From a virus (Duplodnaviria; Caudoviricetes): a stretch of 64,000 nucleotides of DNA. Below are positions 8,485 to 46,193 of this stretch, one piece after another; positions within the stretch are counted from its first letter, which is position 1; the number at the start of each line of letters is the position of its first letter. The translations under genes and the position numbers were made by a program. The DNA lies in the IMG/VR virus record IMGVR_UViG_2843291059_000004, positions 32,001-96,000 of that record. The stretch is one strand, 5' to 3'. The notes beneath the pieces were generated by a model. That model searched no databases. It was not told the origin of the DNA and saw only the letters and a program-made list of their open reading frames with translations.

Positions 8485-9408
8485 ATTTTTGTGGAAGTAT
8501 TCGATCCAGCCCTTGTATCCTTGCCGGAAACTAATGTATGCAACCTTGCTGCACTTTCTTCCGATAATGTCCGCAAGAGGATCTTTACCATTTCCGAAAC
8601 TAAGTTCTGTAAGATTAAATTCTGGATGAGTTTTGCAGTAGTTATAAACCTTTACATACTCGCCGTTTCTGGTCAGATGTCTTCGGTCTAAAGCCTTTGA
8701 ATGATATCTTCTTTCGAGAATATCATTCAAGCGCGTGAAATAACTATGAATCGTATTCGTAGACATTCTTGAATCACTGTCTGCACCAGTTCTATCCTCT
8801 GTTTTGCGAAGAATGTAATCACCATTTATGACATAAAACGTTCTGTATCCTCCCATATTGGGGGCATCATATTGTTTCATTTCATAACACTGCTTGATGA
8901 TATTCATCAGTCTCGCGTCAACACTGGTCTTATTCAAAACAGTACATGATTCAAAGTCAACATCGTTAATCGTCAGATTGGAAACTTCTTCAGAAGTAAG
9001 GCCAATCCAGTACAGCACGGCAATCACATTCATACGAATCTGATATGGCTCTTCATACTTGTCCAAGAAATCAACAAACTCATCAACTGACGCAAAATAC
9101 TTGTCCTCGTACATATTGTCTGAACTCACATCGCTCTCCGAGAATTCAGCTAAGTCATACATACTCGCTCGATCCTCACTTTTGATGTACCCTGTAATTA
9201 TCGACTTTACATTTCTGAACGACCGACTTGAGTTCACCCAATTGTATTTAGCAAACATCTTTACAAAATCATCTTTTGTGAAGTCAAACAACTCATACCC
9301 ACGCTCGGCCTCGTAATCCATAACATGGTTAAGCGTCGATATAACAAACTCACCGCTTCTATCAGAATACTTTTCGGCAAAAGCTTTGATTTTTTCTTCA
9401 GTAAGCAT
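8482..9408 (-). CDS. Integrase-fold phage repressor, MrpR/YopR-like (catalytically degenerate)
   Basis: SAM-like N-domain (FDFTKDDF), box I LYWIGLTSEEVSNLTINDVDF lacking the catalytic Arg, no HxxR. Confidence 0.6.
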   Translation of the reverse strand: MLTEEKIKAFAEKYSDRSGEFVISTLNHVMDYEAERGYELFDFTKDDFVKMFAKYNWVNSSRSFRNVKSIITGYIKSEDRASMYDLAEFSESDVSSDNMYEDKYFASVDEFVDFLDKYEEPYQIRMNVIAVLYWIGLTSEEVSNLTINDVDFESCTVLNKTSVDARLMNIIKQCYEMKQYDAPNMGGYRTFYVINGDYILRKTEDRTGADSDSRMSTNTIHSYFTRLNDILERRYHSKALDRRHLTRNGEYVKVYNYCKTHPEFNLTELSFGNGKDPLADIIGRKCSKVAYISFRQGYKGWIEYFHKN

Positions 9409-9459: not shown

Positions 9460-9885
9460 TCAAGCAAATGCGGCAAAATTCTGAAATTCCATAGTATGTT
9501 GTACGCCGCTCAGAAATGCTGCGAGCAAAAATGGTTCATCTTTGCATCTTGCCATTGCAATCATATTCATCTGACGCTCCGACAAAACACCAAGTTTCTT
9601 GATGAACTGTCCTTTGTTAAGTGTATCAGTCTCTTCGCAGAGAACGATACTATCAACCTCTAGGAACTCACAGTCTTCCTTTGAAAGTAGAACATGAACC
9701 GGAGAACGCTTGCATGTTCTTGAAGATAACGGATTCCCCTTGATTGTTGGGCTGAAGAGGTTACGCTTGTTGTTACTTGTCACAACGAACGGTCGAATGC
9801 CGCGCTGCTGATGACCTGTCGCATTAGATAGATCAACCAACCAAACCTCTCCGACCTTTGGGTCAATATTGTTATCCATAGTCAT
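9460..9885 (-). CDS. mazF: PemK/MazF-family endoribonuclease
   Basis: GEVWLVDL..GHQQRGIRPFVVTSN..N..SPT, DSIVLCE..TL.K. Confidence 0.85.
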   Translation of the reverse strand: MTMDNNIDPKVGEVWLVDLSNATGHQQRGIRPFVVTSNNKRNLFSPTIKGNPLSSRTCKRSPVHVLLSKEDCEFLEVDSIVLCEETDTLNKGQFIKKLGVLSERQMNMIAMARCKDEPFLLAAFLSGVQHTMEFQNFAAFA

Positions 9886-11067: not shown

Positions 11068-14000
11068 TCAACTTTCAATCTCCCAATCGCCTGCATTAAA
11101 CTCAGTTGATGGATATACACAATAATCCGACATGAAGCACATGATCTTCTGCCCCGTTCCATAAAAATCATAATCAATAACTTTCATTGTGTCCCCGTCT
11201 TCGGCCACAATAGTCTGTCCAGCTTTTAAAACATCAAAAGTTTTCATAATATTACTCCTAAAATATTGGTTTTATAAATCATGCTCTGCAATGTATGGCC
11301 CATACAGACATCTTTTTACATCGTTGTTGAATAGCATACAAGCCACTTTCCCAAATGTTTGATATGCTGCATCTACGACTTCAAATTGAAGTGCCTCTGG
11401 AACATCTTGCAACTGCAGCAAGTTAAGCGTTCTGCTGTACACTCCGTCGTTTTTATCTTTCTTGAGACATATAACATCAAACATATCATCACAAAGCGCA
11501 AGAAGTTCAGTAGGGCCGAGATTGTTGTTAATGTATCGTCGAGCAGATTCTCGTTTGGAATCTGGAATCACTATAAATTTCATAAGACTGCCTCCTATAA
11601 AAGATTAGTTTTATCGTTATTTTACATACACGATAAAATATGCCTTGTCCATTGGGTGCTCAATCCGCAGAACTTCGTACTTGTCAGCATCTTCCATCGA
11701 AATCTTTGAAACACTATTGTAAATCAAATGCTGTCCATAAACGCCATGACCTTCATTTGCGACAAGTACCGCTTCATCTTTACTCATAACAGATAACAGC
11801 TCGGCCAACTTCATATTAAATCCTCCTTAAATCTTAGCTTTTTTATCAGACTCAGCTAACTGAAGCTCTTCCAACGAAAACGAAAGTCTTCCGCCTCCGC
11901 AAAAAGTAGTGAACTCAACAATGGCAGTATCTCCGTCGATTTCATCGATAATGCCTTCGCACCAATCTTCAGCGTAAACTTTGTCTCCAACTTTCATAAC
12001 TACTCTCTCCTTAAATCTCAGCTTCTATCAAAAATCAGAATGCAGCACTACCGGGGAGCGACTGTCTACATCGCAGAACACACACTCCCATTTTGGAGAT
12101 TCCTCGTAATATTTATAGTTTCCTTGCGGTTTCCATGTTAAAACCAAAACATTTTTTTGACTGCTATAATAAGCAGCATTTACCTCTGTTGCATCACATT
12201 CCCAGCCGCTATCCGTTTCGATAAAAACATCACTTGGTAGCTTTTCCAAAATCTTAATTAACTCTGTAGCAATCATATGAAACTCTCCTAGAACTTAACT
12301 TTCATCACATCAACTACGTTCTTTAATCAAACCATTAGCCGATGCCTCTGCTCTTAATTTTATGAGTTCTTTCTTTGTTTCAAAATTTTTCTCATATCTT
12401 TCCATAAAAGCCCGAACGTTCATGTTCTTCTGGTTATTCGGAAAGATAAATTCATCTAAAATACCATCTTTTGTTACCGTATAAATATCCTTTGATGTAT
12501 ACTGTTTTTTCAATTTCACCTCAAAGCCATGTTTTAATAGCCAAGAGATAGCTAGTTTCTCTTGTTTATTAAAGTCCCATTTTTTATTTTCAAGTCCTTG
12601 TAAATTCATAAGTCCACCTCATTCCATGCTTGCGCATTCTGTGGTTATGCAAAGTTTAACAGCACAACCAATCATAGTCAAGTAATTTCCAACATTTTCA
12701 TAAGAACCCGGATTTTATGACTGTCTACCACGAAGCACATATGCCATTGTGTCTAGTAGATCTGCCACCGAGCACGGATGCGACATAACTTCATTTTCAA
12801 TCAGAAAAGTGTCGTTCATTCTCATCCAAACCGCAATATCTTCAGCTTTGTCGGCAACTACCATTTGTTCATATTCCTTCAAGTCAATCATTACTCTTCT
12901 CCCTTTTTCCGATACTACAGACAAATATTTTATTAACCCTTGTTCATTACTTCCTCAATCTTGCAATTGATAGAATCAATCTCACGCATCAGCTTACAGC
13001 GATAATTTCCGTTCCTGTTAAGTCTGAAACATAAATCCTCATCGTCACTCTTATAACCCATATAGCATCCAGACCTGCACAGGCTTGTCGCATCAAGAGC
13101 GTCTTGGATTACTCGTGCCTCATTAAGAGTCAAATCAATTTTCATCGTTGTTCACCACCTTTACTCTTCTGCCTTTTCTCCGATACCACAGATAAATACC
13201 TTATGTTTTCCATTCTCGTCACGCTGCCAATCACCACCAAGCATCTCAATCGTATGGCACACTGAATAATAAGCTACGGTTGAATTGACGGCCTCTTTGT
13301 CTCTTTCAAAATCATTCGTTTTTATAAAATGCCAGTTGTTATCAAGCCAATTGACTACCCTTATAACCCCTGCACGAAGCTCTTTTTCTTTCTTGTTTGC
13401 CATTTTATTTTACTCATTTGTATTACATATCCTGATTTACAGAGTTCCATGTCTCTGTCGAAATGCTGTCATTCTCATCAGACAGGCAATCAATCCAAGC
13501 ATTGAGCACTTCACGGTACACTGTCATATTTGGACAAAAATGACTGTTGGTGAATACCGGCATATCGTCATTACACAGAATTCTCATAATAGCAGCACAC
13601 ACGGCTGCAGATCTCGATACGCCAGCAGCACAATTTACGCAGAACCAATCGGTCTTATCTGCTTCGTGGTTATCCAAGACAAATTTCACAATATTCCTAG
13701 CTTGAATATCCGTAATACATGTACCTTCTAAATCAGTAGTGCAATCATCAAACTTTAACGGCAGAAAAGTAATATTACCCTCACACTTATGGAAATCAAT
13801 ATGATGACCATTAGCTTCAGTGATTGAGATAAACCGAATCCGTTCAAAATGTGGCTGTCGGATAAAGTCTTCTGCATCTTCTGCACTCATCACTGAAAAT
13901 TTCCACTTTCTCCGATACATCGTAATAATCATTTCGTTTTCCCTCCAAAGAATTTAGGTTTTATCAATAAATGATAAATCAAGATCTTCAAACTCAACCA

Positions 14001-15741
14001 CCTCATAATCTTCTGTTGGGTGGTTTGCATATATTTTTATTGCTTCATTTACTGACGGATGTTTCAGTAAATATAACAATCGTTTCATCCCTTCTTTTGA
14101 GATGTTATACTCTTCCCGAATCATCTCGACTGCTCCTTCAAAGCGCAAACGGATCATTGCCAATTGTTATTATGAGTGCAACATTCAAAGCAAATATCAT
14201 AAACGCGGTCATTCTTTATCACCTCAATCTCTAAATTCAATATCGACAACAATATTTTCTGGCTCTGTCATGTACCTTCGTGCCAGCAGTTCTACCATGC
14301 GTTCCTTGTCCCCAAGATTGCTATTACGCAAAAGATACGAACAAACTTGCTTGCCCCTGTACAAGAACACAGCCCATGCACTTCTCTTTAATGGGTTTGT
14401 GGTCTTAATCATTCCATTGCTTCCTCCAGATATGTAGTCACATCACCAAAATCAAAATCCAGAGCACCAATCATATCATCCAGAGCATCCACAGCATCAG
14501 ACAAATTCGTGCAAGCATTATCCGCTTTATCATATCGTTCACTGCCCTGCAGGTTCTCAGGCATATTGTCACGATACTCTTCTTCTTCCCACTGGATATC
14601 CTCGACATCGGACTTTATGCTTTCGACATCCGCCACAAGTTCTTCCAGCTTCTTACGGATGGAATCAAAACGGTCAATGGTTTGCTTAATAGCTTTTCTA
14701 CGAGTGTTATTCATTTTCAAATCTCCTTTCAATCTACGATACCAAGCTTGCAAATATTTTTCGGATCAGTGATATAACCAAACGTCAATGTGTTTCGCAG
14801 ATATCCTTTGTATTCAAAACCACGGTCACGAGCTGCTAGACGACACACATCTCGAATCGCGGATTCTCTCGGCCAAGAAATACCAGCCACCTGGTATTTC
14901 CACTGAAGATCCCTCAGCTTCTGCCACTCAATCACAGGCTTTTTTTCATTCTCGAAGCACAAACCGTTCTGTACGGCATATTTCAGAGCATCACATCGCT
15001 TACTCTCTTCCGATGTACAAGTTCCCCACTCATTTTCCAGATGACGATACGCTCTATCAAACGGTGCTTGCTTTGCTGCATCAATGCCAAATGCCGCTCC
15101 AAGCAAACCCAAGCCAAGTAACAGTCCCATAATTTAAACCTCCAATTTACTTTTATCAATGTCAAACGTAAAACCATCATCTGTTTCCTGATAGTTCACT
15201 TCATCAAGTGCCTTATCCCGTCGTCTATTCTCTTCCACTATTTTAGCAACATTGGGATGATGCAGATTATACACAAACTGCTTTGCTTCATCGTCTCGCA
15301 AAACGATATCTTCATTCACATAATCACGCTCCTAAAATCACTCTTTTATCAATCATTATACCAATCAAGAAACTTTTCCCATCTCGAAAGTTCATCATCT
15401 GTCATACTCTTCAACCTCATTTCTAAAGATTCTTCAAGTAATTGAATATTTGTGAACTCTTCGTCTGTTGGTGTATATCCTAAAAATAGCGATATAACTT
15501 CAATACTTTCAGGTATAATACCTCTTAAAACTCGTTCAATCTGTGTCATTTATCCTACAACCTCAACACCCATAACGTTTTTTACAACAAAATTATCGTA
15601 TTCACTGAAGCTTTTAACAGCCAAAGATTTTGCTTCAGATTTATTTTCCGAAAACAAAGTCACTGCCGTCTCATATAAAACAGAGAATCCTTCAAGTTGA
15701 TTGTCCTGTACTTTAACAAACACTTTATACCAATTACCCAT
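11068..15741 (-). other. Run of small hypothetical CDSs (11068-11247, 11272-11583, 11617-11814, 11846-11997, 12028-12276, 12310-12609, 12715-12924, 12933-13145, 13161-13403, 13954-14163, 14224-14412, 14409-14753, 14729-15130, 15134-15319, 15349-15549, 15550-15741)
   Basis: Head-to-tail minus-strand ORFs, most with clear SD sequences. Confidence 0.7.
13423..13932 (-). CDS. Cys-based (CX5R) protein tyrosine/dual-specificity phosphatase-like protein
   Basis: VNCAAGVSRSAA P-loop, ISIT, LKFDD, PN motifs. Confidence 0.8.
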   Translation of the reverse strand: MIITMYRRKWKFSVMSAEDAEDFIRQPHFERIRFISITEANGHHIDFHKCEGNITFLPLKFDDCTTDLEGTCITDIQARNIVKFVLDNHEADKTDWFCVNCAAGVSRSAAVCAAIMRILCNDDMPVFTNSHFCPNMTVYREVLNAWIDCLSDENDSISTETWNSVNQDM

Positions 15742-15764
15742 AACAACCTCCTAAAATATTACTT

Positions 15765-16439
15765 TTAAGCATCTTTCTTTATTAGCGGACGTCTATGCGT
15801 CGCATTTTTCAGCCAATCACCATCGCTGGGCATCTCCCTACTCACTCTAAGATTACGACCGCCACCTATCGGACACACTCGACGGTAATCATCAACAGTC
15901 TTGCAGCCAAGAGATTCGGCTTCATCCAGTGCCTTTCGCACATAAGCCCATGTGCTACCGCCTAGATCAGAGCACTTTCCAATCACAGCAAGTACAAGTT
16001 CGTCACCCATGCGCTCAACATATTCTGCCAAAGCTTTCTGCCCAGTAGCACCGAGCTTCCCGATATTCTCTCGAAATACATCCTCGATCGGTTTCGTCGT
16101 TGTCGTCTCATCACAAGACGAAGACGATATCTTATCTTTTTCTTTCTCTTTTTCTTTTTCTAGCTTTGTTTTGCTTGCGTTTGCTTCGTTTTGCTTACGC
16201 TTGCTTTCACCGCCAGCTTTTCCAGAAATGCGCTTACCTTCGATGTATTCGGCATCTTTAATCAAATCTCTCTTGATAGCAGGCCACACGTACCGCTCAT
16301 TTCCGATGAGTTCAGGTTCCGTTCCAGACGATTTATATTTCATCATCGCCAGTACCAGACGCCCCACCTCAGCAGCACTAAGGGGTTCAAAGTAGCTCTC
16401 GTAAGTATCCCAGATTTTAATATAAGTATCAGCCATCAT
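15765..16439 (-). CDS. DnaD/DnaB-domain replication initiator-like protein
   Basis: N-terminal LSAAEVGRLVLAMMKY...GNERYVW, low-complexity KEKEKE linker, C-terminal TWAYVRKAL DnaD-like domain. Confidence 0.75.
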   Translation of the reverse strand: MMADTYIKIWDTYESYFEPLSAAEVGRLVLAMMKYKSSGTEPELIGNERYVWPAIKRDLIKDAEYIEGKRISGKAGGESKRKQNEANASKTKLEKEKEKEKDKISSSSCDETTTTKPIEDVFRENIGKLGATGQKALAEYVERMGDELVLAVIGKCSDLGGSTWAYVRKALDEAESLGCKTVDDYRRVCPIGGGRNLRVSREMPSDGDWLKNATHRRPLIKKDA

Positions 16440-16444
16440 ACACC

Positions 16445-17323
16445 TCACATTGCTACAATTGAACAATGACAATCAACGCCATAGTCGATGTTAGAATAAT
16501 ATTCTCTATCAACGTCTGCATTTAATCCAATGTAGTGAAGCGTAATAGCCTGATTACTGTGATTCAGGCTATGTTGCAACCACGCAAGTGCCATCTGGTC
16601 ATCTTTATGATTCATCATGAATTGATAACCAAAAGTCTTTCGACAACTATGCGTCCCAAGTTTATAAGAAAGCCCTAAGTCTTTTTGAGCTTTTCTCATA
16701 ATCTGTCCAAACGTATCAACATCAATCGGGTCACCTTTCTTCTTTGGATCAGCTTCATATTTTACAACTTTCACTGCATTTGATTTTCCCCCTCCAACTT
16801 TCCAAGAAGAAATACCCCCATTCGTTCTTAATGAATTTTTGCTACTTCCTTTCTGAGATGGGAAAAGCCACGAATGATACGACGGCCTCGTTAGCCGAAT
16901 ATATTCAGCTATAATCTGCATTGTGTTCTGCCCAATTACAACATCGCGATATTTTCCTGTCTTTTTCTCCTTAAAGCGAACATTGACTGTTTCATTAACA
17001 ACAAGTTTTCCATCAACCAGGTGCGATACATCTTCAACTCTAAATCGAAGAAGGTCACTCGCACGAAATCCTGTGGCAATACCAAGATTAAACAAGCACC
17101 AATCTCTATACTTCTTTTTATTATAGAAATATTCAGAAATAGCCTGAATATCTTTTACGTCACGAATCGGTTCAACTTCACCATTTCGTGCCACAGAATA
17201 TCGAGTGATGTTGTAATTTTTTCCTTTAGAATATTGAGTTGTTTCTTGATTAACATCTTCATCTAAATATTCGTCAATACTTATAAAATCCGATTCATAC
17301 TCTTCCTGTGCTAATGCTCCCAT
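16445..17323 (-). CDS. Tyrosine recombinase (compact, catalytically intact)
   Basis: TGFRASDLL (R), KEKKTGK (K), THSCRKTFG (HxxR), LNHS (H), TLHYIG (Y). Confidence 0.9.
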   Translation of the reverse strand: MGALAQEEYESDFISIDEYLDEDVNQETTQYSKGKNYNITRYSVARNGEVEPIRDVKDIQAISEYFYNKKKYRDWCLFNLGIATGFRASDLLRFRVEDVSHLVDGKLVVNETVNVRFKEKKTGKYRDVVIGQNTMQIIAEYIRLTRPSYHSWLFPSQKGSSKNSLRTNGGISSWKVGGGKSNAVKVVKYEADPKKKGDPIDVDTFGQIMRKAQKDLGLSYKLGTHSCRKTFGYQFMMNHKDDQMALAWLQHSLNHSNQAITLHYIGLNADVDREYYSNIDYGVDCHCSIVAM

Positions 17324-17338
17324 ATACTATATCTCCTT

Positions 17339-17563
17339 TTAGATTCCGTATTTCAAACAATATTTCCCATATGACAATCCTTCTGCATCAGCTAATCTTG
17401 TGATCTCAACAAATGTTGGCTTATGCTTCTTTTTATTTTTACACCTAATAGATGCCTCGTTTCTAATAATTTTACGACATTTATCACAATAAAGTCTGCC
17501 ACATTTTGGTCCATACCATGTAATACCACAGCGATTACACGTTATATCTCCATACACCATCAT
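17339..17563 (-). CDS. Zn-finger hypothetical protein
   Basis: CNRC...YCDKC, GLSYGKY. Confidence 0.6.
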   Translation of the reverse strand: MMVYGDITCNRCGITWYGPKCGRLYCDKCRKIIRNEASIRCKNKKKHKPTFVEITRLADAEGLSYGKYCLKYGI

Positions 17564-17566
17564 ACC

Positions 17567-17815
17567 TTATACCTCAAATTCATCAATCATCCACTGATGC
17601 TTGTAATAATAGCCTTCACTCTCTTCTGTTACCAGAGCGCTAAAACTATCAATATAGGACTCTTCACTTGCATCTGGATGGCTCTCTTTGCATTCCATAT
17701 AAGCCAGCTTCATCAATTCATATAGCTTCTTTTCGTCAGAAGAAACCTCAATTACATTTGCCTCTGCATAGAATTCCGTTTCTTCATAACAGTCATGTAA
17801 AACATAAATTCTCAT
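17567..17815 (-). CDS. Hypothetical protein
   Basis: GAGGT RBS, acidic small ORF. Confidence 0.6.
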   Translation of the reverse strand: MRIYVLHDCYEETEFYAEANVIEVSSDEKKLYELMKLAYMECKESHPDASEESYIDSFSALVTEESEGYYYKHQWMIDEFEV

Positions 17816-17825
17816 AATATGTACC

Positions 17826-18446
17826 TCAGTTCTTTTCAAACAAATCGTTACGAATCTTCGGAGTAAACTTACGATTGCCAAGTTGTTCAATAGCAGTTTC
17901 CAACCTACCATCTACCCAGCCCTTATCTTCTTCATTCATAATGATTTCAAGCAAAAACTTTGCGTCCTTAGCTTCCCTACGCTTCCGCCGAGCCCTTTTA
18001 AGTTCTGCCATAAGCTGATAACCTTGCGCTGCGTTTACAGTCTTGAACTCAATAGCGTGTTCCAGATCATCAATCTCGTCGCCTGCAGCAGTCAGGTCAC
18101 CATACACTTTTGAATACATTTCATTCAGATTGCACATAGTCCTATCCGTAATAACCAAATCCTTTTTAAGTTTTGCAAGCCATTCAGAATCTTCCATCTG
18201 AAATGCGTATGTATTCGGCTTATCAGCCGGAGCTGCTATATTTGGACTCTTACCAACAATGGTGGCCTCGTCCATAGACTTTGGCGTGTAGTGTCCATTC
18301 TTATACCCGGCGGGAAGCTTATTGATTTCACAAATCGCCAGTCCCTTAGATTCAAACTGTAATGCCAGATTGATATCACAAGTAGCACAGATTCGACCTC
18401 CTTTCCGTTTCATAATATAGTTATGACCATTCGATATCACATACAT
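17826..18446 (-). CDS. Hypothetical coiled-coil phage protein
   Basis: DLEHAIEF..NAAQGY..RRKRREAKD pattern. Confidence 0.6.
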   Translation of the reverse strand: MYVISNGHNYIMKRKGGRICATCDINLALQFESKGLAICEINKLPAGYKNGHYTPKSMDEATIVGKSPNIAAPADKPNTYAFQMEDSEWLAKLKKDLVITDRTMCNLNEMYSKVYGDLTAAGDEIDDLEHAIEFKTVNAAQGYQLMAELKRARRKRREAKDAKFLLEIIMNEEDKGWVDGRLETAIEQLGNRKFTPKIRNDLFEKN

Positions 18447-19751
18447 TTACTTCTTCTCCTGTTCTTTCATCAACTGCTTCACAGCCTTCTTAAACATCCG
18501 CATAGCATTATCACTTTCCAGGAAAACCTTAGTCTTCGGTTTGGGCATACAGCCATGAGCACGTTTGTATGCCTTCAACATACTTTCCATCTTTGTATAA
18601 CCAATCTGGTCATAAATCATACGGTAAGTCTTATGATAATGAATTGTATTGTCTCCAATTTTCTTTGCCAAAGGTTCAACAACTGGAACCAGTTTTAATG
18701 CTGTCTCACTCTGCTTCTTAGGCTTCTCATTAACAACTTCCTTGGCTTCCACCTCAACCACGGGAGCATCGTTCGCATTTACTTCAGGAATTACTTCAAT
18801 GGTCTTCAAAGCAGGACGAAGTTCATTCTGATTCTGGTGCAGACGCTCAATAGATGCTGCATACATATCTGCAACAACTGACCCCATAACGGATTTCCAA
18901 GTGGAGTCCTCTTCAATAATGTCAATCGTAGAGATTTTCCCACTACGATTCGTTCTCTTAATATACTTTGCACGAGCATCTTCCAAAACGAAACCATAAT
19001 TACGATTTAAATATTCATAGATCTTGTGAAGCGTTTCTTTATTCGTGTAACCTTTGGTATTTGCAATTACACCAATCTTGCTATACAAATCTTTACGCCA
19101 GTTACTCATTTCATCCTGAAACACATTGCGAGGAGTGTAGCTCTTAGCACGAATCGCGTTATCCATCTGCTTATCCTTAATCTGATGAACGCACTGAGAT
19201 ACGCTGCTGATTACATTCAGTGCCTCATTACTGGTAGCACGAGCCTCCTCAATCTGTTCACTGAGATCCTTACGGGTGGAATCAAGTTCACTCTGAAGGT
19301 TCTTCACACTATCAAACAAAGCATGAAGTCTAACATCAATGAACTCCTTACTCAGTGCAGCATCCATCTGAGGCGTAGCCAGAACGGTATCACCACGCAT
19401 CAAGGATTCCATGATGTCCCAGCAGAAATCCATGAACGCATCTGCCTTTGGCTGACGACTAAAGCGGCAAATCTCCATTACGCCACGCAGATTATACATA
19501 TAAGTTTGACGCATCTGCGTATGATTTCCGACCTCAGTGGTCAAATTGACCACCGAGCTCAATGGATTAAGACGATCTGCGTTACGGTCATGAATCTTAG
19601 AAATATTGCGAACAGGGTCTGTATATTCCAGCGCCGCACCAATCTGTTCACGGGTCATGTAATACTGGTGCTTATTATCCTCGTACACATCCACATTCAG
19701 TGCACCAAAAGGCTTAGATGTTATTACGGTCATAGAATTGTTAGTAGTCAT
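18447..19751 (-). CDS. BRO-N domain antirepressor-like protein
   Basis: MTREQIGAALEY..ISKIHDRN..YNLRGVMEICRFSRQPKADAFMDF. Confidence 0.8.
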   Translation of the reverse strand: MTTNNSMTVITSKPFGALNVDVYEDNKHQYYMTREQIGAALEYTDPVRNISKIHDRNADRLNPLSSVVNLTTEVGNHTQMRQTYMYNLRGVMEICRFSRQPKADAFMDFCWDIMESLMRGDTVLATPQMDAALSKEFIDVRLHALFDSVKNLQSELDSTRKDLSEQIEEARATSNEALNVISSVSQCVHQIKDKQMDNAIRAKSYTPRNVFQDEMSNWRKDLYSKIGVIANTKGYTNKETLHKIYEYLNRNYGFVLEDARAKYIKRTNRSGKISTIDIIEEDSTWKSVMGSVVADMYAASIERLHQNQNELRPALKTIEVIPEVNANDAPVVEVEAKEVVNEKPKKQSETALKLVPVVEPLAKKIGDNTIHYHKTYRMIYDQIGYTKMESMLKAYKRAHGCMPKPKTKVFLESDNAMRMFKKAVKQLMKEQEKK

Positions 19752-19774
19752 TTTGTTTTACTCCTTTTCGTTCA

Positions 19775-22700
19775 TTAAGAAAAATCTGCGGTCAAATCTT
19801 CAGACGTCCAGCTCTTATAGTCTGTGTACTCGTCACTGAGCACATCCATCCAAAGATAATTTTCAATATCACCACTACTATCATAATTGATACTAGACAG
19901 GTTGATTGTTTCGCCATCATTTCTTTTAAGGTAAATCACGATCTCAGGATATGGCTCTACAAAACCCTCTGCAACGATCTTTCCGATGGATGTATCGATT
20001 TCAAATCGCTTTTCATTCATATTGATTTGCCTCCTAGAAGAACTGTTTTATCAAACTTCAATAATCGTCCACCATTCGCTTTCTTTAGGCGAAGAGATAT
20101 ATATGCTATCACTAAGCTCTGTGATTTCCGGTTCATTTCCAGGTCCACCATACATTACTTGATAATAATGCTGGAACTCTGCTTCAGCTTGATTTATTGC
20201 ATCATTTTTCGCTTCTTCAAAAGTATCAAACGTTTGCTTGTTAATGACACTAGGAATATCTTTTTTCTGCATAAAAATATCCAAAAGCATATACATAATC
20301 GTCACCTCAAAACTGATACTTCCAAAAGATTCGTGCGTTGCCGGTAATATCTTGCAAGCAAGAAATGTACTCCCGGAACGAAATCAGCCCTTGTATCTTC
20401 ATAACCCATGCTCGCTTTGCACGAACTGCAATCGCTGGATCGTACTTCACAGCATCGTTAAATGCGCTGTCGGTCATTTTGCGTTCAAAGTAACGAATCT
20501 CATTGATGTTCATAATCATTTCTCCTCTGTCTCACTCAGTTTCTTTTCAAAATCTTCGAGTTCTTTATAATCTTCATCTGTGAGATAATCGTCGATTTCA
20601 ATATCCAAAAGGATATAACACTGCGCCTGCAAAGCAACATACGCATCATCTGCACTCATTCCATTTTCAATAAGAACTTGTGCCGCTTCCATAAGTTTAT
20701 CATTCATAGTTCGTTCCATTTTCTAAAACCTCAACAACAATCAGCTACAATTTTCTCAAGCATATCCATAAGTTCTTTGAACGTTTTACATTTCATTTTT
20801 ACATTAAAAATCAAGCAATAAATAACCTTTGCGTTATCACTAGGACATTCACTCTCGCCGTTATTGTACATTCTTATTAAGTCATATGCACTTGTTGTGA
20901 TTGCACTCTTTTCTCCGTCCTCATCAACAAGCAAAATACAACTTTCCCGAAGATAAAACCTAGTAAAAGTCCACATTTTTAAAACCTCGATTCTATTAAA
21001 TGTAACGTTCATTGTTTTTGTTCAAAAAATCCCTAATATAATTCTTCAGGCTATATTCAATACCACTTACAGAGGATAAAGTTCTTGTCCATAATCCGCC
21101 TAGATGGTCACTAGACGCCTTATCAACCCCTTCAATCACAGTAAACCATTCATAATTATTATCTTCTTCCAATCCATCAAAATCATCTTCTTCAAAATGT
21201 AAGTCCATTTCAACGCCAGGATACCCATCAACATCGTATGTAACAATTCTGGTATCAAAATCATTCGGTTTATTGCCAGTGCCATCCCAGCCAGACGGAT
21301 TCATACGCTTGATAAAATCTTCTGCAACTTCACGAATAGTCATAACATTCACTCCCTCAATTCTCCATTTTCGTAATCAAAAACATAGCAACAATTCTCA
21401 TAATCTTTCTTGTACAGGTCAGTCTGAATCTTATCATTTTCTGCGTCCTGTTCAATAATTGTAATCAAATCGTCCCATGAAAATGTTTCCCCGTCTTTAG
21501 AGTAAAAAATTCCCATCCCTGGAAAGCTTTCTTTATCTGCCGATTCCGTAGCAATCAGCCAGCCATCATGAATTTTGACTTTGAAATCATGTTCATCAAC
21601 ATTATACATATATCTTTCTCCTTTATATTATTATCTTATCTTCACCAAGCGTTTCAGTTTCATATGTTGTATAGACAAGTTCTGTCGGCTTACTGTAACA
21701 CGTTTTCATCCAGTCAAGCTCCGCATCACGCAGCTCTTTTGTGGGATAGATTTCATGCCCTCTATATGTATCGCCGTACATAAAGTGTCTGACAGAGTAT
21801 TCAAGATGGTAATACATTATCGTTTTTCCAACTCCTCACACACTTTTACAATGATAGCCAAACCTGTACGCCGAAAATCTGCATTGTAAGGATTTTGTGC
21901 TTGAACATCTAAATGGCATAGCAATTTTTCCAAATCAGAGCTATACTCAACGCCTGCTGTTTTACAAAGGACCTCAGCCATCGCTTGAGTGTCATATTTC
22001 ATAATAAAACTCTCCTTTTACATTAACTTACCAGAAACATCAAATGCTTTCCATTTGAAACTGAATTTATCTGTCCAAACTTGTGCCTCAAATTCATTGT
22101 CATCATAATCAGTTTGGACGTCAGGAAAATCAGAATACATTGCATAACATTCTTCTGAATCATCCATAATGTATTTTATTGCTTCCGTTTTGGTTTTGAA
22201 AAATTCAGGCTCAAAAATCTCACCTTCGGAACCACATTCAATAACACACCACATAGTATTCTTCCTTTTACACACTCACATTCTTGTAAACCCAGTCAAC
22301 GCCTTTACTATGGAACTCATCCACCCAACGAAACCAATCATCTTGTGTGAAACTGCCAACTGGAAAGCCTCTCCAATTCTGATCAAGAACTAATTCTCCA
22401 TGTTCGTTTCCAACCCATGTAAAATCCGTGTTCTCTTTCCAAAGACGTTCAACAAATTTATCGCAATCATCTTTATTCCAACTTAGCTTCTGCATCCACT
22501 GTGCATCTAAATATGTATTTTCATATGCTTCCGCAACAGCACATGGACAGTTTTTACAGGTTTTTTCTATACAAGACCAACAAGGGCCATTATAATAACT
22601 CATAATTTATGCCTCACTAAAATCCGCATTGGCAAGAACTTCATTGCCATATTCAACAAGAACATTTCTGAACCAATTTTCATTCTTTTTCCACCACTGT

Positions 22701-25700
22701 TCTGCTTGCTGCGGAGTCATTTCAATTCCATTGTCTTTTGCAACACCGATAATATCATCGGTGCACCAACGTGTTTCAGCAAACCACTTTTCTTTAATAT
22801 CATCTTCTTGATTTTCTCGCTCCATCTCGTCCAAAACAGTCCATGGATTTGCCCAGTCACATAGGTCGAATAACTCCAATGCTTTATCTTCGGTTTTACA
22901 CAAATCCAAAAAGTCTTTCCATGTATAAAAGTAAGCCGAGCATTCGGCAAGATCGTCTTTCGACATCATATAATCAGTTGGAATATCATTCAATGAAACA
23001 TCAGGAATATAAATTACTTCATTAAGATCAAAACACTTTCCTTTTGCCTTATAGATAAGACAGTTCTGACCTTGGGTTAAATCCAATAACGACTCAAGAG
23101 TTTTACCAGCTCTTAATTCAGCAACCAATTCTTCATATTTCATAATATTTCCTCCTAAAATTCAACATTTATCAAAAGCGCCAGCTAGTTGTAACAACCT
23201 TTTTTGCTTCGCCTTGTTCGTATTTGTTGTTTTTAATAGCTTCTTCTAAACCATTGCCCGCATTGTAGGCTATACCATTTTGAACAGGGTCATCTCCAAG
23301 AAAACCACCACAAGAATCGATTTCAGTCCAATTAGGTTCGGCGCTTTCTTCGACATCATCTTCTACAAAACCATCCTGTTCATAAAGCGTATACCCATAC
23401 ACTTCACCAGTCAGATAGTTGTTATACGCCTCAACTTCAAGTTCCATATTTTTTTCAGCAATTGCTTTATTCTTTTCGTTAAAGTCAGAAAGAATAGTAA
23501 CAATCCATCCTACATAACTCGAATCAAACATATCGTTATAAGGATATTTGCGTACCCCGCAACTCATTGTGATTCCGCTATGTTCGTAAGTCCAAAGAGG
23601 AAGCCAAACTGCTCTTTTTTCAAGCAACATCATACAGTCACGAATAGAAAACTCTTCTCTGGAGTACTGAACAAGATCATCATAAAACAGATTTATCCAT
23701 CGGTATTCATCTTTGTTAGGAATCCAATCATTTGACTCAGAATCGTTAGTACAAATCGCCCAATAATCATTATCATCATCGCTGTCATGATATTGGATTG
23801 CACATGTATCGAAAAGTTTTTTATTCACTAGTGCATCAAGAACCTCTTCGTCACTGCAATACTTCCAAACAAGATCATTCCAAAAATATTTAGGGTCACT
23901 AAAACCAATATCATCACCAAGAGAGTATCTTTTATGAAAACAAGCCATAATAGAATCATGCCCATAATCACGAGGATTGCACTCTCCATCATTATCTGCC
24001 CAAATATGCAAGCAGTAATTTACACCATCATTCTCCCACTTTATAGTTTCATTGTCGTAGCAATATAACATATCTAAAATCTCCCTTTTATTAAATTTTA
24101 TTTTTATATTTTCTTACAATCTCAATATCAGAAGATAAACAAAGAAGCATCGCTTCAAGACGTTCACACATAATATGGCGATCAGGGTTTGATATATATA
24201 ACGCCATCATCGCGTCGTATTTATCAAGAAGCTCTTTCTCGATACAATCAATTGCATTCATATCCAATACCTCCATTATGCACTTGCCTTTTCTTCGAAA
24301 GCGTACCAATCAGACCAAATCTTATCGACCTCGCCATTCTTAAAGCCTTTCTTATAATCGGTAAACTCAACATAATAGTTGCTTGTCCACTCATTCAGAG
24401 CGTGTTCGTAAATGGCTGCAACACCACGCTTTGTTTCAACAACAAAGCTATCGACCAAAACACCTTCAACATAAGCACCAGTATATTGTGCTTTATTCTG
24501 GTGCATCCAACGGCCAAGAGCACCCGCATTAAGATAAAACCGTGTCATGATTCATTCTCCTCTTTTCATTCCGTCGCAACTTCCAGCAATTTTATCAATC
24601 ATTTCTATATACTCTCCGAATGTTTTGCATTTCACTTCCACTCCAAAACAAGCTGCATAAACAACCAAAGAGTCATTACTTGCCACATAATTACATTCGT
24701 GCCACCAGTCATAAAGCATGGAATCAACACTGCCAGAAATAACTCTACTGTTGCCATTATCATCCTTAACAATTACTGCACAGTCGTCCAGAACGTCATT
24801 AAAAAGCAACATATTCATTCTCCTTTACTCTTACTCTGCAATCATCATAGCGAGAACTGGTTCACCGGAATCTTTCAGCTGAAGTTCCAGAATGTCGCCG
24901 TCATCCACGACCTCACATTTGTTCAGATAATCCTGAAGGAAGAACATCTGACATTCTTGCCAGAAGATTTCTTTCGGATCTTCATTCTCTCCTACGAACA
25001 CATTCTTGTGATGGAAAGATTCATTCCAAACCCAGCCATCACCATCGTGCAGTGCATGAACTTCTCTTAAATCCCACATAATCAGTCCTCCCCAAAGATA
25101 TGACGCTTGTTAAGGTCATCACGGATAATATCCTCAATTTTATTTTTGGTACTATCATCAAGTTTTCCGTAAGGAGCATTGTCAAGATAATAGAAGTAAA
25201 TTTCATCTCCAAGATCCTTGTACATGACACTCACATAAAACCCAGCTGAAATTCCATTCAGTAAAGCATATCCAATACCGTATACTTCTGAATAATTGTT
25301 ACCCATTAAATCCCACATAGTTAATCCTTCCAAAAGTTGAGTTTCTTTTTGATTGTCATCTCAATTTCGTCTTTATCACCGTCAGATAGAATCTTATTAT
25401 CGTACTCGGAATAGCAAAACATAATGCTACGGCCATTATATTTATACATAACCATTGCTGTTTTTAATTGTTTGTCACGAAAAAAGGTTGCGCACCCAAT
25501 TCTATATTTTTTAGAATATTCATTTTCAACTAAATCCCACATTTTATCACACTCCATAAAATTCAATCGGTTTGTCATCAATCCAAACGAAACCGCAATA
25601 TCCCTCCTGATGCAGTTGGGAAATGAATTTATCGACAGCACGTTTTTCTGCCATAGTAAGCAAGACAGTGCTTTCACACGTATCTTCAGCGCATAAACCA

Positions 25701-28700
25701 GCGTCCCACTTATATTCTTTGTCGTTTTCAATGTACTGAGGACAACGATTTATATCCATTCCTCTATCGCCATTAAAATGGCATCCAGTATTTGCACAAG
25801 AAATACAATATTTCACATTAAACACCCATTCCTTTATAGCCCATCATATGTAAACCTTTATGCTTCTTACGACGCATATCATAATAGATTGCTACCGTAT
25901 TTTTCGGCATATTGTTTCTGAAATACTTTTCTTTGTATTCACACAGCTTCTTATACTCGTCACTTTCACGATGAGCCTTCAGCTTTTCACAATGGTCATG
26001 ACAACCAGGATAACGCTCCGGTGCCACACAGTAACGGCAAGGATCGGTCATATTGCAAACTCCTTTTCTCTTGTAAACTTAATCACCAACGCATTCACGT
26101 TGGCCGCTTCCATCGTTGACTGCTTTGCATCCTCGTGATTACCAGCTCTAAGGAACGAAACACTCTGATCCATCAGCTTACGCCGATAGAAAGAAAGAGC
26201 TGCGAGAACGATATTCTTTTCAGTGTTGGTCATGTTCTGTCACGTCCTTTCCGTCATAGACAATCCAACCTTTTTTATCATCCCAAGAATAAATCACGCC
26301 ACTTATATAAACATCAGGGTGCTCATCCGAAATAATCCTCTCTCTGAGAATCACCCGTTCATAGAAACCATCTTCAATCAACCGCTTCATCATACGAAAT
26401 GCGCCGTTTTTTTGTTTTGTATCCAGTTTTCCTAAACGTGGGCCAACCATGTTTATCTAACCATCCACAAACGCTATAAGTAACCATAGATTCCATTTTT
26501 ATCACCTCAATCTTCATCGCTCAGGTTCTGACAAAAACTCAAATAAAAATCAATATCGAAACATTCCACATCACCATCAGGGGACCACCCATAAGTCACA
26601 TCTGCAACTGCATTGTGCTTATAAAGAGCATCAATAATTTCATCACGGTATGCTGTGATCCAGTTTTTTGTTACATTGAATTTTCTAGTGATTTCATAAA
26701 CATGAATAATCCAATTACCTTCTGTGGTGCTTCTTGTTCCACTTTTGACCATCCAATCGGAAATACTGTTAATCATCCAATCGTTAACCTGTTTTACAGT
26801 TTCGCTAGTATACATTTTTATCACCTCAATCAAAACTGAACCACTTCATGTTTGGCTTTCTCCAGCATCTCTTTCTCTTGTTCTTCAAGACGTTCAACTT
26901 CACACAAAACATTACGAATACCAATGATAATAAAATCCCTATCACGCTCACGTTCTGCCCTATGTGCGGGATTGTTTTTGCAAAATCCTTCGCACAAGTT
27001 GTTTTCTCTTGCAATCAAATTATCAATCGCGCACTTCAAAACACGCTTATCTTTTTCAGTCATATTTGTCACCTCAATCATTGTAAAATATCTGATTTAT
27101 CAAAACCATGCACTAGCATCAAATACAAAATAGAAATGTTCGCCATAATCTTCAATCAAATCTTCCGTTCGGTTAAGACCACATTCTTTCGCTGATTTAA
27201 TAACAGCTCTTTTGAAGTCTCTTCTAAGAATCCAATAATCTGTTGCACCTACTGGAATATCATATCCGACAAGAACGCAAAGTTGCTTTCCTTCAAGCGG
27301 AGCTGCATCGAAATCAACTTCGGTCACATATGGAATGTTCAAAATTTTCTGCTCAAGATATTCCAATTTTTGAATTGAAACACCAAACATTTTTGCATAG
27401 CCAACAACAAATTCATTTTTTGTTCCGCGTTTCATTTTTATCACCTCATAAAAGCATGATTTTAGATATCAAAAGCATCATAAAGATCTTCGGGCTTATC
27501 ATTCGGCATCCATACTTTTGCATTATCATTAAGGAAGTAACCGCAACCAAAAAATCCAGCAGGAGAATCACAAAGATTCTGTTCACCATCTTTAACACCA
27601 GCTTGATAAACAACATAGATAAACTCAGCAAGCTCATGCTTATCCATTCGCTTAATGCGGTCGTACAATGTTTCCATATCAATCGCTCCTTTTAGATATC
27701 ACTCTCTTCGTTTTTAAGACGACACTGTTCTTGACACTTGTCATAATAATCAATAACTTCGTTAATCTTCTCAGGAGATTCTTCTCTATATTTCTTATAC
27801 ATCTCCACTGCCTCTTTTGCTTTACAATCGTATGCCCACCGATAAGCCTTTACAAATCTCTGCTGGCGGCGACCATAATTCTTATCCTTTTCTCTAGCTT
27901 CATATATCTTTTTAACAGTTCTTTCAGTGACCTTATCGTTATTTATCGAAACTCTATGCATTACATCAGAAAACTCAAGAAACATACTTTCAGGGACATA
28001 TCCATTGTGATCTCGCATCTGTGTCCACATCTTTCCAAGCATCTGAAAGTCCTTTTTACCGATATAAGCCATACCTAACACTCCTTTTAATATTATTGTG
28101 TTTTCACATTCTGGTAGCGGTTATGTCTGCCCTAGTACCGCTAATCACCTAGCATCTGCTATTTATACTACCCAGACTTGACTTCTTATGTAGTCCTCAA
28201 TATCTGCTGGATAACCATTGCGCTGGACATACTGACACAGCATACGCTGCACATCACGGTTGTCACCATAGTCCATTGCCAACGAGATATCTTCACCGTG
28301 AGTTCCAACACCCAGGCGTTCATACTTTCTGACTTCAAGATAGAAGTCGTATGCACTGTAGTGCCTTCCGTCCCGGCGGTCGAGAATGGAATCAATAATC
28401 AAAGTTTTCACCTCTTAACCAAAAATATAAATTGCTGACGTTCTGGAAGTCACGGCATAATATGTTCCGGTTTTGTATCCTTTGAGTAACATTCCATCGC
28501 AACCATAAACACCAGAGGAATATCCGACCTGAGAAAGATAATCTTCTCTTTTGATAATCTTTTCATAATCCTCATTGTTTGCACGAGTAACATCTTCTGC
28601 CATTCCAAGGGCAACCATATTCTTCAGTTCTTTCCGAGTGTACTTACGCATTTTCTTTCATCTCCTTTACAGTCTCATCGTCCCAATGAAATCCACGCTT

Positions 28701-31020
28701 TTCATAAAGCGGAATCCAATGAGCTTCAAAAAAGTCGTAGCCACAACCATCAATGCCGAAAATGTAACCGTAATCTTCTTGCTCATAGATACGAAAACCA
28801 CAGTCTGCCATTTCCTGAAGATGATTCTCAAGCCACCAATTGTCACAGCCGTCACTGAACTGCCACATCGTGCCCCACATCGGAAGACCATCATAACGAA
28901 TGACTTCAAATTCGTCCGTACTCAGATGAATCTTCACGCTGGTGTCCTCATCTGGAACGATGGTATAAATCATTTCTCCATCGTCATTCTTGCTATAGCC
29001 AACAACCTCACCTTCGCCGTTATAATCACCACCCAAAATCGAAACGCGATCATTGATAGTTGGCGGGGTGATCTCCGTCATCTCTTCGCCGTTCTCATAC
29101 ATATTCAGCTTATTGAGCTTTTCAATAACGCTCTGAGGAATCGCATTAAATTCCTGAACCCATGCGTATGCTGCGTCTTTCTTAGTTTTATACATAGCCA
29201 TAGTTGGATCTCCTTTTCTTGCGTATCCTGTATTATATAGCTGAACGGTAAAAATAAAAGTCCTCTAACGGACTGCCTTTCTTAGCTACATAATACAGGA
29301 TACTGATAGAAATGTCAAGCACTAAAATGTAGATTTTATTAACGTCGCATTTTAGTGCGTTGATACGTTGTTTATTTGTGACTGTTTTGTGAATGTCAAT
29401 CAACATCCACTTCATCAGACCGTACCCACAGAACGTCTTCGATGGTATCGTCATAGATGGTTTCTGTTCCATTGCTGTTCATAACCATGGTAACTTTCTG
29501 ACCATCTGACGGGGTTTCTTCCATGCTTGCGTAAGAATACAGCCATTCTTCGCCGTTCTCATCAACCACATGGATTGTCTTGATTCCGTTACGGAATACT
29601 TCGATTTCATCCACGCTACCGGCCAGGACATAACGATTCTCCAGGCGAGTTTTCATAGGCTCTGCTGCATTTGCAGTCATACAGTTCGCCAGAATGGAAA
29701 CACCAGCCACAACGGTAGCCAGGATGACGGACAGCTTATTCTGAGTAAGTTTCATTTTATGTATCTCCTTTTCAATCTTTCAAACCAAATAATTTCATAC
29801 CAGCAGATCCCATGTCTGCCGGGTACAATTTTATAACACGATCGCTGTAAAATTCTGCAATCAAATTACAACTCTCAAGCGAAGTATATTCTTCGTCGAG
29901 AGTTCTTCCGTTATGTTCTGCGGAATTATACTCATCCGCATCATAAAATCCATACATAGCGGTATCATAGAATTCTGACGTAGACATTCCGCCGTACTCA
30001 AAACCTGAGAGAACATTTTTCAGTCCTTCTTGACCAAAGACTGCCGCATAAATGCCGCCTGCATTATCCTCATACACTTCAACACTTACTCTCATTTTCG
30101 TTTTCTCCTTTCTTAGTGACCCCAACGGCACACGATAACGCCGTTAATCCAGATAGAAATGTTTGCGCCCTGCCGATACCACTCGACAGCTTCACGGTGA
30201 ATATTAGTGATAATACCGGTATCATCGTTCATAAAATACTGACCTTTTTTCATCTTGTGTTCTCCTTTACACTCTCATGCACTCATCAAGATAGATTCGT
30301 TTACCGAAACACTTGACGTATGCTCTGCCAGACGGTGCATAGATGATCTTCAAATGATGATAGTGAAAATACTTCTCATCATCACACAACACACCAGACA
30401 TACCATAGAGATAATCGTCAATGCCGTATTCGATATCGCCATGAATCTGGAAACCACCACATCTGCCGTAGCTGCTATCATAAGCAGTTACAGGATGGCT
30501 CTTACAATATTCTCTTGCGGTCATATCAAACTCTCCTTAAAACATATCTTTTACGATGATTTCAGCATCAGGATAGTACATTTTTACACACTCCACAGCT
30601 TCTTTTGCATCTGCCACAATGAGGTTGCAGCACTTGCGCTCATCCATGATGTATGCGCTGTAATTCTCGTAAGTGGTCATTTTCCATCTACCAAAGTGGT
30701 TGAAAACAACGATCTTCTTCATGCTTTTCATTCTCCTTTACTCAAAATTCTTATCAGGTTATACCTCCGAAAACATAGAGTAAATCATGTATGCCGTACC
30801 AAGCGCACAAAGCACAATCACAATGAGCGGAACCCACTTAACCATCCAGAAATACCAAGCCATTTTACATTCTCCTCTCTTATTCCATCCAGCATTTTGC
30901 GGTGCTGACATATTCAACACCGGCTTCTGCCAGGGCTTCCTGATAGATTTTCACAAGCTCTGTGTCACCAAACGTTATGGCAACATCAAGAGCCGATTCA
31001 ATAGCCAAAATTGCCATGGT
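19775..31020 (-). other. Dense array of ~40 small hypothetical CDSs (early/host-takeover-type region), including 22607-23143, 23172-24071, 28644-29201 and signal-peptide protein 29396-29755
   Basis: Contiguous minus-strand ORFs of 45-300 aa with SD sequences; no catalytic motifs recognised. Confidence 0.7.
29290..29318 (-). promoter_or_regulatory. SigA-type promoter overlapped by the 21-bp box at 29283-29303
   Basis: TTGACA-17-TATTAT on minus strand. Confidence 0.6.
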
Positions 31021-38849: not shown

Positions 38850-39114
38850 ATAATGCGTACTTACGAGGATGTTTATGCAGAAATCAAGCAGCTTGTGCGT
38901 GATATGAATAGCAACAGTCTGACACGCAGCGAGTATGAATCTGCTGAAGATTATTTGGATGAGCTCTATCAGGAGCGTGAACGACTTTGGCTCAAGGCTA
39001 TGGAAGATGGAGAGAGATGGTGAGAACTGCTATTTGTAAAAGCCTGCTTTTATATTTTCCCTTTAGCTATACATTACAGGATACATTCAAAAAGAACATG
39101 GAGGTGACTGCCGA

Positions 39115-45564: not shown

Positions 45565-45685
45565 AAGCGGTGAGCCCCTACCACTAAACGGGAACCTAAA
45601 AAAGAAGTACGACCGTAAGGTCTGCTTGGGACATCATTTGTTGTCTCCTTTTCTATGGGCTGGGGTGATTGCTCCAGCTTATTGT

Positions 45686-45773: not shown

Positions 45774-45774
45774 T

Positions 45775-46127: not shown

Positions 46128-46193
46128 AAGATTGTACAGCTATTCCCTACACCTTTATATAAAGGTAGCTGTACAGGAAAGTAGGGTTATTGT

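Follow-up and report, generated by a model that had tools for sequence, protein, structure and literature searches.

It has long been asked why the mosaic boundaries of phage genomes coincide so neatly with gene borders, and the usual answer is random illegitimate recombination followed by selection. The question arises anew in a 64,000-nucleotide stretch of phage DNA (hereafter the window, bases 32001–96000 of the 134,478-bp virus record IMGVR_UViG_2843291059_000004), in which a 16-base palindrome, TAAAA-N6-TTTTA, recurs at gene boundaries. A defined 16-bp site that lies base-exactly at mosaic boundaries and is kept from the Bacillus phage SPbeta to the Clostridium phages c-st and phiCD211 offers a testable mechanistic alternative. 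We propose that the sites may be addressed recombination joints for exchange between SPbeta-like phages, a reading in which we place about equal measures of belief and doubt.

Based on protein matches, the phage is placed among the large SPbeta-like temperate phages. Its YonO-like RNA polymerase is 38% identical at the protein level to those of c-st and PMBT24 and 25% to that of SPbeta, and it encodes homologues of SPbeta polymerase YorL, YorK, YorJ and the helicase YorI. Some 130 small minus-strand genes occupy the first 65 kb of the genome, and plus-strand arms follow. In a comparison with PHROG, most genes of the site-bearing array had no family, and a megablast search of the array against phage records gave no match. 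Two relatives of 125–137 kb, G001 and G002, form the phage's own group with it (the trio); both share blocks of 85–99% identity with the phage, with replaced segments in between. In the small-gene arm, gene junctions account for about 70% of the block ends, and close to one in two of all junctions is a boundary.

A palindrome with a fixed six-base spacer

The exact motif was found 13 times in the window, against 0.23 ± 0.45 copies expected from dinucleotide shuffles, and each of the other spacings from N0 to N14 gave 0–1 copies. The same picture emerged for the whole phage, with 23 copies at N6 and 0–1 at every other spacing. An unbiased scan of all 5-N(2–12)-5 palindromes returned TAAAA-N6-TTTTA as the sole one, and a reversed control pattern occurred once. 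The spacing specificity proposed in an earlier reading of the window from its letters (the original prediction) was thus confirmed. Being AT-rich and overlapping stop codons, the motif might be taken for a chance composite of an AT-rich stop-codon context and an AT-rich spacer ahead of the ribosome-binding site. We consider this explanation negligible, as it is refuted by the spacing test and by the excess over shuffles and control, and the same motif recurs across distant phages of 26–42% GC content.

Copies with one mismatch were, as a whole class, near background (25 at N6 versus 8–25 at other spacings). Five of them, at 20035, 20980, 23156, 25531 and 27084, are nevertheless judged genuine because exact copies with the same centre occur in G001 or G002. 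The region 11259–29339 therefore holds about 13 well-supported sites. It had been credited with about 18; the family itself is real, and the eight exact copies reported there (11259, 11598, 15333, 15752, 22005, 24075, 27449 and 29323) are all correct, whereas 12012 is weak and 25531 had been missed. Among the sites of one genome all centres are different, and in 58 distinct sites A never occupies the first position of the centre. In the phage's own group we found no conserved sequence outside the 5-bp arms.

Most sites sit between genes: although 89% of the genome is coding, 19 of the 23 sites are not wholly inside called coding sequence, and in 14 of the 23 the motif's TAA either serves as the upstream stop codon or follows it in frame at a distance of 3, 6 or 9 nt. 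The predicted location at gene boundaries was therefore correct. A ribosome-binding site usually follows directly after TTTTA, or lies inside the centre (22005 and 24075), and the distance from motif to start codon ranges from -11 to over 100 nt. The dyad symmetry is perfect on both strands, irrespective of gene direction. Late-gene junctions had been described as free of sites. This holds for the structural block past genome position 99 kb, which has none; four sites of the window, however, lie on the plus-strand arm. These results establish the motif as a real, spacing-specific, dyad-symmetric family at gene boundaries. Two further observations concern its position. Exact sites at genome positions 14476, 21090 and 30827, upstream of the window, lie within called genes, one of them near the N-terminus of a helicase gene; they are kept in G001 and G002 with both flanks homologous. 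The TAGAA arm variants at window positions 20035 and 31020 also start with a stop codon.

The motif was then sought in other phages. SPbeta has 34 copies of TAAAA-N6-TTTTA versus 0–3 at other spacings, and counts at N6 are similar in SPbetaL3 (36), SPR (35), phi3T (30) and BUCT082 (37). Outside this family, c-st has 31 copies versus 5–12 at other spacings and phiCD211 has 26 versus 2–12. Perkons has 17 copies with TAAAA arms; with the pattern widened to TRAAA-N6-TTTYA, Perkons has 52 and KKP_3916 has 14, versus 0–5 at other spacings. This motif (in its general form, TRAAA-N6-TTTYA) ranks first among the palindromes of SPbeta, phi3T, SPR, BUCT082, Perkons, c-st, phiCD211 and KKP_3916, phages whose polymerase-gene proteins are only 24–38% identical to one another. 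Zero copies were found in Sundance and PMBT24. In SPbeta the arms extend weakly to TYTnnW-TAAAA ... TTTTA-WnnARA, an 11-6-11 dyad of 28 bp. In the open literature that we searched, we found no paper describing the motif.

Some phages in this comparison deserve a remark of their own. Perkons and KKP_3916 mix TGAAA and TAAAA arms freely within a site, and both arms begin with a stop codon. PMBT24 carries ten copies of another, nearly invariant AT palindrome with a 5-base spacer (TTTTAAAA-WTWWA-TTTTAA-like), versus about 3 at other spacings; because its centres are alike, we regard it as a different kind of element. Sundance has an unrelated dispersed palindrome, AATAC-N2-GTATT, with 8 copies versus 0.3 at other spacings.

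Homology breakpoints at the sites

We compared gene junctions with and without the motif in five genomes of the SPbeta family. Junctions with a motif coincide with mosaic boundaries in 29 of 39 and 37 of 58 cases (64–74%), whereas length-matched junctions do so in 37 of 172 and 35 of 171 (about 20%), giving odds ratios of 10.6 and 6.9. Measured against neighbouring junctions, the odds ratio is 6.6–12.8 in each of the five genomes. The claimed link between the motif and gene exchange is thus supported in the SPbeta family, where homology ends at the motif edge; in the trio, to which we return below, it is not significant.

The breakpoints are positioned with base precision. Among 176 ends of homology blocks lying within 60 nt of a site, 51 fall 0–2 nt past the far arm, that is 17 per nucleotide versus about 1 per nucleotide elsewhere, and few fall inside the motif itself. 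The original prediction had placed the breakpoints inside the 6-bp core; instead, blocks end at the outer edge of an arm, and the centres are identical between both genomes in 50 of these 51 cases. Block ends that keep the upstream side (24/77) and those that keep the downstream side (27/91) give equally sharp peaks, and a site is retained with either neighbour equally often (44 versus 43). Mismatches between orthologous sites amount to 0–0.5% in the arms and 0.7–1.5% in the centres, and to 2.3–4.2% in the adjoining 8 nt. The phage's own group shows the same pattern on a smaller scale, with 7 of 27 nearby block ends 0–2 nt past the far arm and identical centres in all 7.

The sites of the window, given without strand, are as follows.

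11259–11274: exact, centre TATTGG (plus strand); its TAA terminates the upstream minus-strand gene; identical 16-mer in G001, where homology carries on along one side only
11598–11613: exact, centre GATTAG; with 11259 it brackets a 103-amino-acid gene (11272–11583); identical 16-mer in G001, flank opposite the bracketed gene unrelated
12012: weak, two mismatches
15333–15348: exact, in-frame TGA-TAA tandem stop; within a 627-nt segment not present in G001 or G002
15752–15767: exact, its TAA the stop of a DnaD-like gene (15765–16436); a homology block shared with G001 and G002 begins 5 nt away
20035–20050: one mismatch (TAGAA arm); exact with the same centre in G001; mosaic boundary
20980–20995: one mismatch (TTCTA arm); exact with the same centre in G002
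22005–22020: exact, ribosome-binding site in the centre; kept in G001 and G002
23156–23171: one mismatch (ATTTA arm); exact with the same centre in G001
24075–24090: exact, in-frame TAA-TAA tandem stop, ribosome-binding site in the centre; identical 16-mer in G001, adjoining 299-amino-acid gene 47% identical at the protein level, other flank unrelated
25531–25546: one mismatch (TAAAT arm); exact with the same centre in G002; the homology block with G001 stops 1 nt beyond the site
27084–27099: one mismatch (ATTTA arm); exact with the same centre in G001 and G002
27449–27464: exact; identical 16-mer in G001, both flanking genes unrelated to those of G001
29323–29338: exact; a TTGACA hexamer starts 4 nt downstream in gene direction
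30538–30553: exact, just outside 11259–29339; G001 and G002 homology blocks stop at or near its edge
39037–39052: exact, 63 nt upstream of the YonO-like RNA polymerase gene
45981–45996: exact, no clear genes around; G002 homology begins 6 nt away
46333–46348: exact, in the same gene-poor stretch as 45981
62008–62023: exact, its TAA the stop of a DUF1064 gene and the ATG of the next gene in its centre; 548 nt upstream of the recombinase gene at 62556

Three of these sites illustrate the pattern in the phage itself. At 11598, 24075 and 27449 the 16-mers are identical in G001, while the 200 nt on each side are 48–61% identical, unrelated pairs averaging 48%. At 27449 the two flanks are at this random-pair level (48–50%), and the flanking genes are unrelated in both protein and DNA. 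Apart from the 103-amino-acid gene, which has a 39%-identical allele in G001, and the 299-amino-acid gene, the neighbours of these three sites showed no protein similarity to those of G001. Genome comparison thus supports gene exchange at the sites; the support is strong in the SPbeta family and takes the form of single examples in the phage of the window.

Readings of the sites and candidate proteins

We infer from the sequences that a protein binds the motif and that recombination occurs within it. TAAAA-N6-TTTTA (TRAAA-N6-TTTYA family-wide) would be a double-stranded DNA site read by a dimeric protein, as suggested by the invariant arms in distant phages, the strict spacer and the direction-independent dyad. 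The two 5-bp arms would provide the contacts and leave the 6-bp centre free to vary among sites, and each centre, kept between relatives, would work as an address. The sites might then be precise joints where co-infecting or resident SPbeta-like phages swap DNA on either side. If recombination took place only between copies with the same centre, the outcome would be ordered exchange between genomes and no deletions within one. Genes joined at a site would be correctly terminated, because the near arm starts with a stop codon (TAA or TGA). We favour addressed recombination joints because the boundaries are base-exact on both sides with identical centres, and consider the palindrome most likely a protein-recognised crossover joint and not an integron. 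A broader version would have SPbeta-like phages of Bacilli and Clostridia carry 20–50 heterospecific sites with private centres and a conserved orphan recombinase of the YomM/62556 lineage, and exchange segments in register at gene boundaries between co-infecting or resident relatives; this broader version we offer tentatively and consider less likely than not.

The likely catalyst would be a phage tyrosine recombinase of the YomM/62556 lineage, since the geometry of the site matches a single-recombinase Xer core site. In XerH–difH, the inner 5 bp of each dif arm are read base-specifically, the outer arm makes backbone contacts and the 6-bp centre is uncontacted (PMC5241119). The phage sites share the inverted arms around a free 6-bp centre, with strict N6, invariant arms and centres that differ between sites, and the SPbeta site with its weak 11-bp arms is dif-sized at 28 bp. 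Like the sites of pdif modules on Acinetobacter plasmids, they lie at the edges of exchangeable gene modules. As in Xer/dif-type systems, recombinant joints map to the site, with the 51 of 176 block ends and 50 of 51 identical centres given above. A YomM/62556-type recombinase, the candidate partner, is present in all motif-bearing phages and also in motif-less Sundance. Unlike Xer/dif and pdif, there are 20–50 sites per genome, each with a different centre, and an arm sequence of their own; the modules are not two-site-bounded beyond chance, and recombination is deduced from sequence comparison. We know of no dependence of TAAAA-N6-TTTTA sites on host Xer. An engineered parallel is given by the heterospecific lox and FRT sites of Cre and Flp, which have identical arms and differing spacers and of which only same-spacer sites should recombine. 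The identical centres at 50 of 51 boundary sites resemble this behaviour; recombination in the phages, too, may depend on matching centres, and we know of no natural phage example of such sites.

Three proteins of the window are related to tyrosine recombinases.

62556–63545, plus strand: tyrosine recombinase, Xer/YomM-like, 329 amino acids, with an N-terminal SAM-like domain and the catalytic motifs present
16445–17323, minus strand: tyrosine recombinase, 292 amino acids, with R, K, HxxR, H and Y present, no SAM-like N-terminal domain and an insertion of about 40 amino acids
8482–9408, minus strand: MrpR/SroF-like protein, 308 amino acids, with a tyrosine-recombinase fold and no conserved catalytic R/H/R

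The 62556 recombinase is 55% identical to that of c-st, and in a phylogenetic tree it forms a subclade with the c-st and phiCD211 proteins. Copies from Sundance and KKP_3916 are the sister group of this subclade, and YomM of SPbeta belongs to a further clade. Every motif-bearing phage examined encodes a recombinase from this YomM/62556 half of the tree, and no other kind occurs in all of them; c-st has only one tyrosine recombinase, which is of the 62556 type. In KKP_3916, which has the variant motif, the gene is split into two reading frames. We therefore regard the 62556 recombinase as the best phage-encoded candidate partner of the sites, the tree being a fit and not a proof. Since SPbeta is integrated by a serine recombinase (PMC10516654), its tyrosine recombinases are without a known recombination role, and the proposal, if true, would give them one. 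In its broader version it would also mean that a DNA phage with an unsegmented genome exchanges parts in a way that resembles reassortment, and that engineered lox/FRT cassette exchange has a counterpart in nature. Centres that act as addresses could offer a natural set of orthogonal recombination sites. SPbeta and phi3T in B. subtilis provide a genetically tractable model for this mechanism.

Several results weigh against the proposal. In the trio, motif junctions compared with neighbouring ones gave odds ratios of 1.0–2.8, which are not significant. An effect was seen only for junctions of the 12–45 nt length class, with 17/28 versus 55/157 (odds ratio 2.9) and a pooled, non-independent p-value of 0.012; pooled statistics count related genomes, so that their p-values are not independent. 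In the SPbeta family, sites account for no more than about 15% of all block ends. Non-homologous segments flanked by sites on both sides are no commoner than chance predicts (9 of 509 versus about 11 expected; 2 of 217 in the phage's own group). Sundance encodes a sister-clade recombinase and yet lacks the motif, and when all proteins of the phage, SPbeta and c-st were profiled against nine genomes, none matched the distribution of the motif, as read before the TGAAA variant of KKP_3916 was found. Finally, the sites could mark the edges of functional units preserved by selection without being points at which DNA is cut.

The main rival explanation is that a dimeric regulator, such as a helix-turn-helix protein with a 434- or CRP-like 5-6-5 arrangement, uses the palindrome as an operator or roadblock and so silences or punctuates early operons, in the manner of mycobacteriophage stoperators (see below). 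The coincidence with mosaic boundaries would then be a by-product, the sites edging independently regulated units and their 16 bp forming islands of identity. We regard this as possible, with the balance of evidence against it. Dyad symmetry and a free spacer suit many repressors, the sites precede ribosome-binding sites in the early arms and are lacking from the structural block, and the weak boundary enrichment in the trio is in keeping with such a role. SPbeta-like phages also have one dispersed operator already, SPBRE, which is bound by MrpR/YopR/SroF, a protein with a tyrosine-recombinase fold (PMC10516654; bioRxiv 10.1101/2025.11.27.690993). SPBRE and the palindrome are both dispersed repeated sites in the same phage family, and the phage of the window encodes an MrpR-family member (8482–9408). 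Some SPbeta sites adjoin terminators and SPBRE-controlled promoters (aimR, yorE and yosX). A second repressor, SroE, is said, in an abstract by Brady et al. from 2023, to bind multiple sites. However, upstream of aimR, yonX, yopV, yonT, yorE, yonP and yopM the SPBRE boxes have approximately the sequence AAATACAAAWAATATGTAT; they are asymmetric, span about 24 bp and differ from the palindrome. SroF binds a 24–26 bp box as a monomer, and in chromatin affinity purification sequencing (ChAP-seq) the ten peaks of MrpR coincided with SPBRE boxes rather than with the 34 palindromes. As for SroE/YopQ, no homologue was detected in two bearers of the motif, this phage and phiCD211. A 5′ regulatory element should travel with its downstream gene, whereas the site stays with either neighbour; homology stops within 0–2 nt of the arm on the non-coding downstream side as well; and conservation is higher in the centres than in the flanks, which is unexpected of uncontacted spacer bases. 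Thus, a regulatory role accounts for the position of the sites and less well for their symmetric retention, the sharp downstream edge and the conserved centres.

The original prediction favoured an integron-like system, in which the recombinase at 16445–17323 would capture, excise and reshuffle promoterless cassettes bounded by two sites. This protein, which lies inside the array, does look catalytically intact, and the gene at 11272–11583, bracketed by two sites, is replaced by a divergent allele in G001. Like integron attC sites, the palindromes directly follow the stop codons of promoterless accessory genes. Nevertheless, the scenario appears very improbable. The enzyme has no counterpart in SPbeta, BUCT082, Perkons or c-st, all of which bear the motif. 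Integron attC sites are imperfect palindromes of 57–141 bp with R''-L''/L'-R' boxes, recombined by IntI as folded single strands; the present sites are 16 bp long and have none of these features. Cassettes with a site at both ends are not over-represented, neither an attI-like site nor a cassette promoter was seen, and sigma-70-like promoters, scanned over 9–29 kb, were not enriched (55 versus 61 in shuffles). Excision between two sites of one genome would not be expected either, because all centres in a genome differ. We give similarly little credence to a role in RNA, where a UAAAA-loop-UUUUA hairpin, or else a stretch recognised by a nuclease or an RNA-binding protein, would act between cistrons in termination-reinitiation or mRNA processing. 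The motif does start with an in-frame stop codon in 14 of 23 sites and is found shortly before the ribosome-binding site, and the TGAAA arm of Perkons and KKP_3916 likewise starts with a stop codon. Yet the 5-bp A-U stem is unstable (+0.7 to +1.8 kcal/mol), the perfect two-strand dyad, whichever way the genes run, argues for duplex DNA, start codons follow at widely differing distances, and some sites lie within genes or in gene-less stretches.

Two other families of short phage sites invite comparison. Stoperators of cluster A mycobacteriophages, at which the bound immunity repressor (L5 gp71) blocks elongation, are present in tens of copies in tight intergenic gaps, often overlapping stop or start codons, and so resemble the palindromes as many short sites across the operons of a temperate phage. 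They are asymmetric and orientation-dependent, with one consensus and no free centre, and we know of no case in which they mark mosaic boundaries. The PeSL (promoter-early stem-loop) elements of T4-type phages, short repeats found between genes where accessory genes begin or end, have likewise been tied to modular shuffling among related phages. They are about 50 bp long, combine a promoter with a stable stem-loop and are thought to work by homologous recombination, whereas the palindromes have no promoter signal, no stable hairpin and variable centres.

Regulatory proteins and neighbouring genes

The 308-aa protein at 8482–9408 matches the Pfam family MrpR_N_CB below threshold and was found with an iterated YopR profile at an E-value of 9e-13. 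It is likely a master repressor and not the partner of the palindrome. A tblastn search with it gave no match, and PDB sequence searches with the 292-aa and 308-aa proteins gave no significant match. An MrpR/SroF-like repressor was rejected as the binder of the motif on account of the different SPBRE box, its recognition by monomeric SroF and the presence of the family in motif-less Sundance. SroE/YopQ was set aside after an iterated profile search gave no homologue in this phage or phiCD211. A promoter or terminator of the YonO-like polymerase was also rejected, as PMBT24, whose YonO homologue is the closest among the phage isolates compared, lacks the motif. YonO of SPbeta starts at a single promoter upstream of yonK, and this promoter region has no palindrome site. 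At SPbeta aimR, yorE and yosX (record positions 76171, 99498 and 129297) the palindrome lies within about 20–40 nt of an SPBRE box. Because the two elements adjoin there, ChAP-seq peaks at these genes could span both.

Directly upstream of the MrpR/SroF-like gene lies a minus-strand gene for a PemK/MazF-like toxin (9460–9879; Pfam E 4e-19), and two near-consensus sigma-70 promoters are found by the toxin and MrpR-like genes on the minus strand, at 10372–10345 and 9951–9923. The arbitrium system of SPbeta works through host MazEF, which makes a phage-borne MazF next to a repressor of interest.

The surroundings of the two recombinase genes differ. The nearest relatives of the 16445 recombinase are located mid-genome in Streptococcus Javan prophages and not at an attachment site. 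Directly downstream of its gene, the minus-strand gene at 15765–16436 encodes a DnaD-like protein, a helicase loader or replisome organiser (PHROG 186, DUF6291). Directly upstream of the 62556 recombinase, the plus-strand interval 61537–62521 encodes a DUF1064 protein (Pfam E 6e-23) and an unknown 169-aa protein.

Further features lie elsewhere in the window. The stretch 45600–46990, which holds sites 45981 and 46333, comprises 1.4 kb without convincing genes just upstream of a 373-aa gene at 46992. The YonO-like RNA polymerase (39115–41898, plus strand) is a single chain of 927 aa, whereas in c-st the annotation splits its homologue into two genes, N-terminal and C-terminal, that are separated by another gene. 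At 6194–8194 (minus strand) a 666-aa fusion combines a phosphatase/polynucleotide-kinase-like region with an RNA ligase (PHROG 8238, E 1e-194), and its position next to a tRNA-rich stretch (5.2–6.0 kb) suggests a tRNA repair module.

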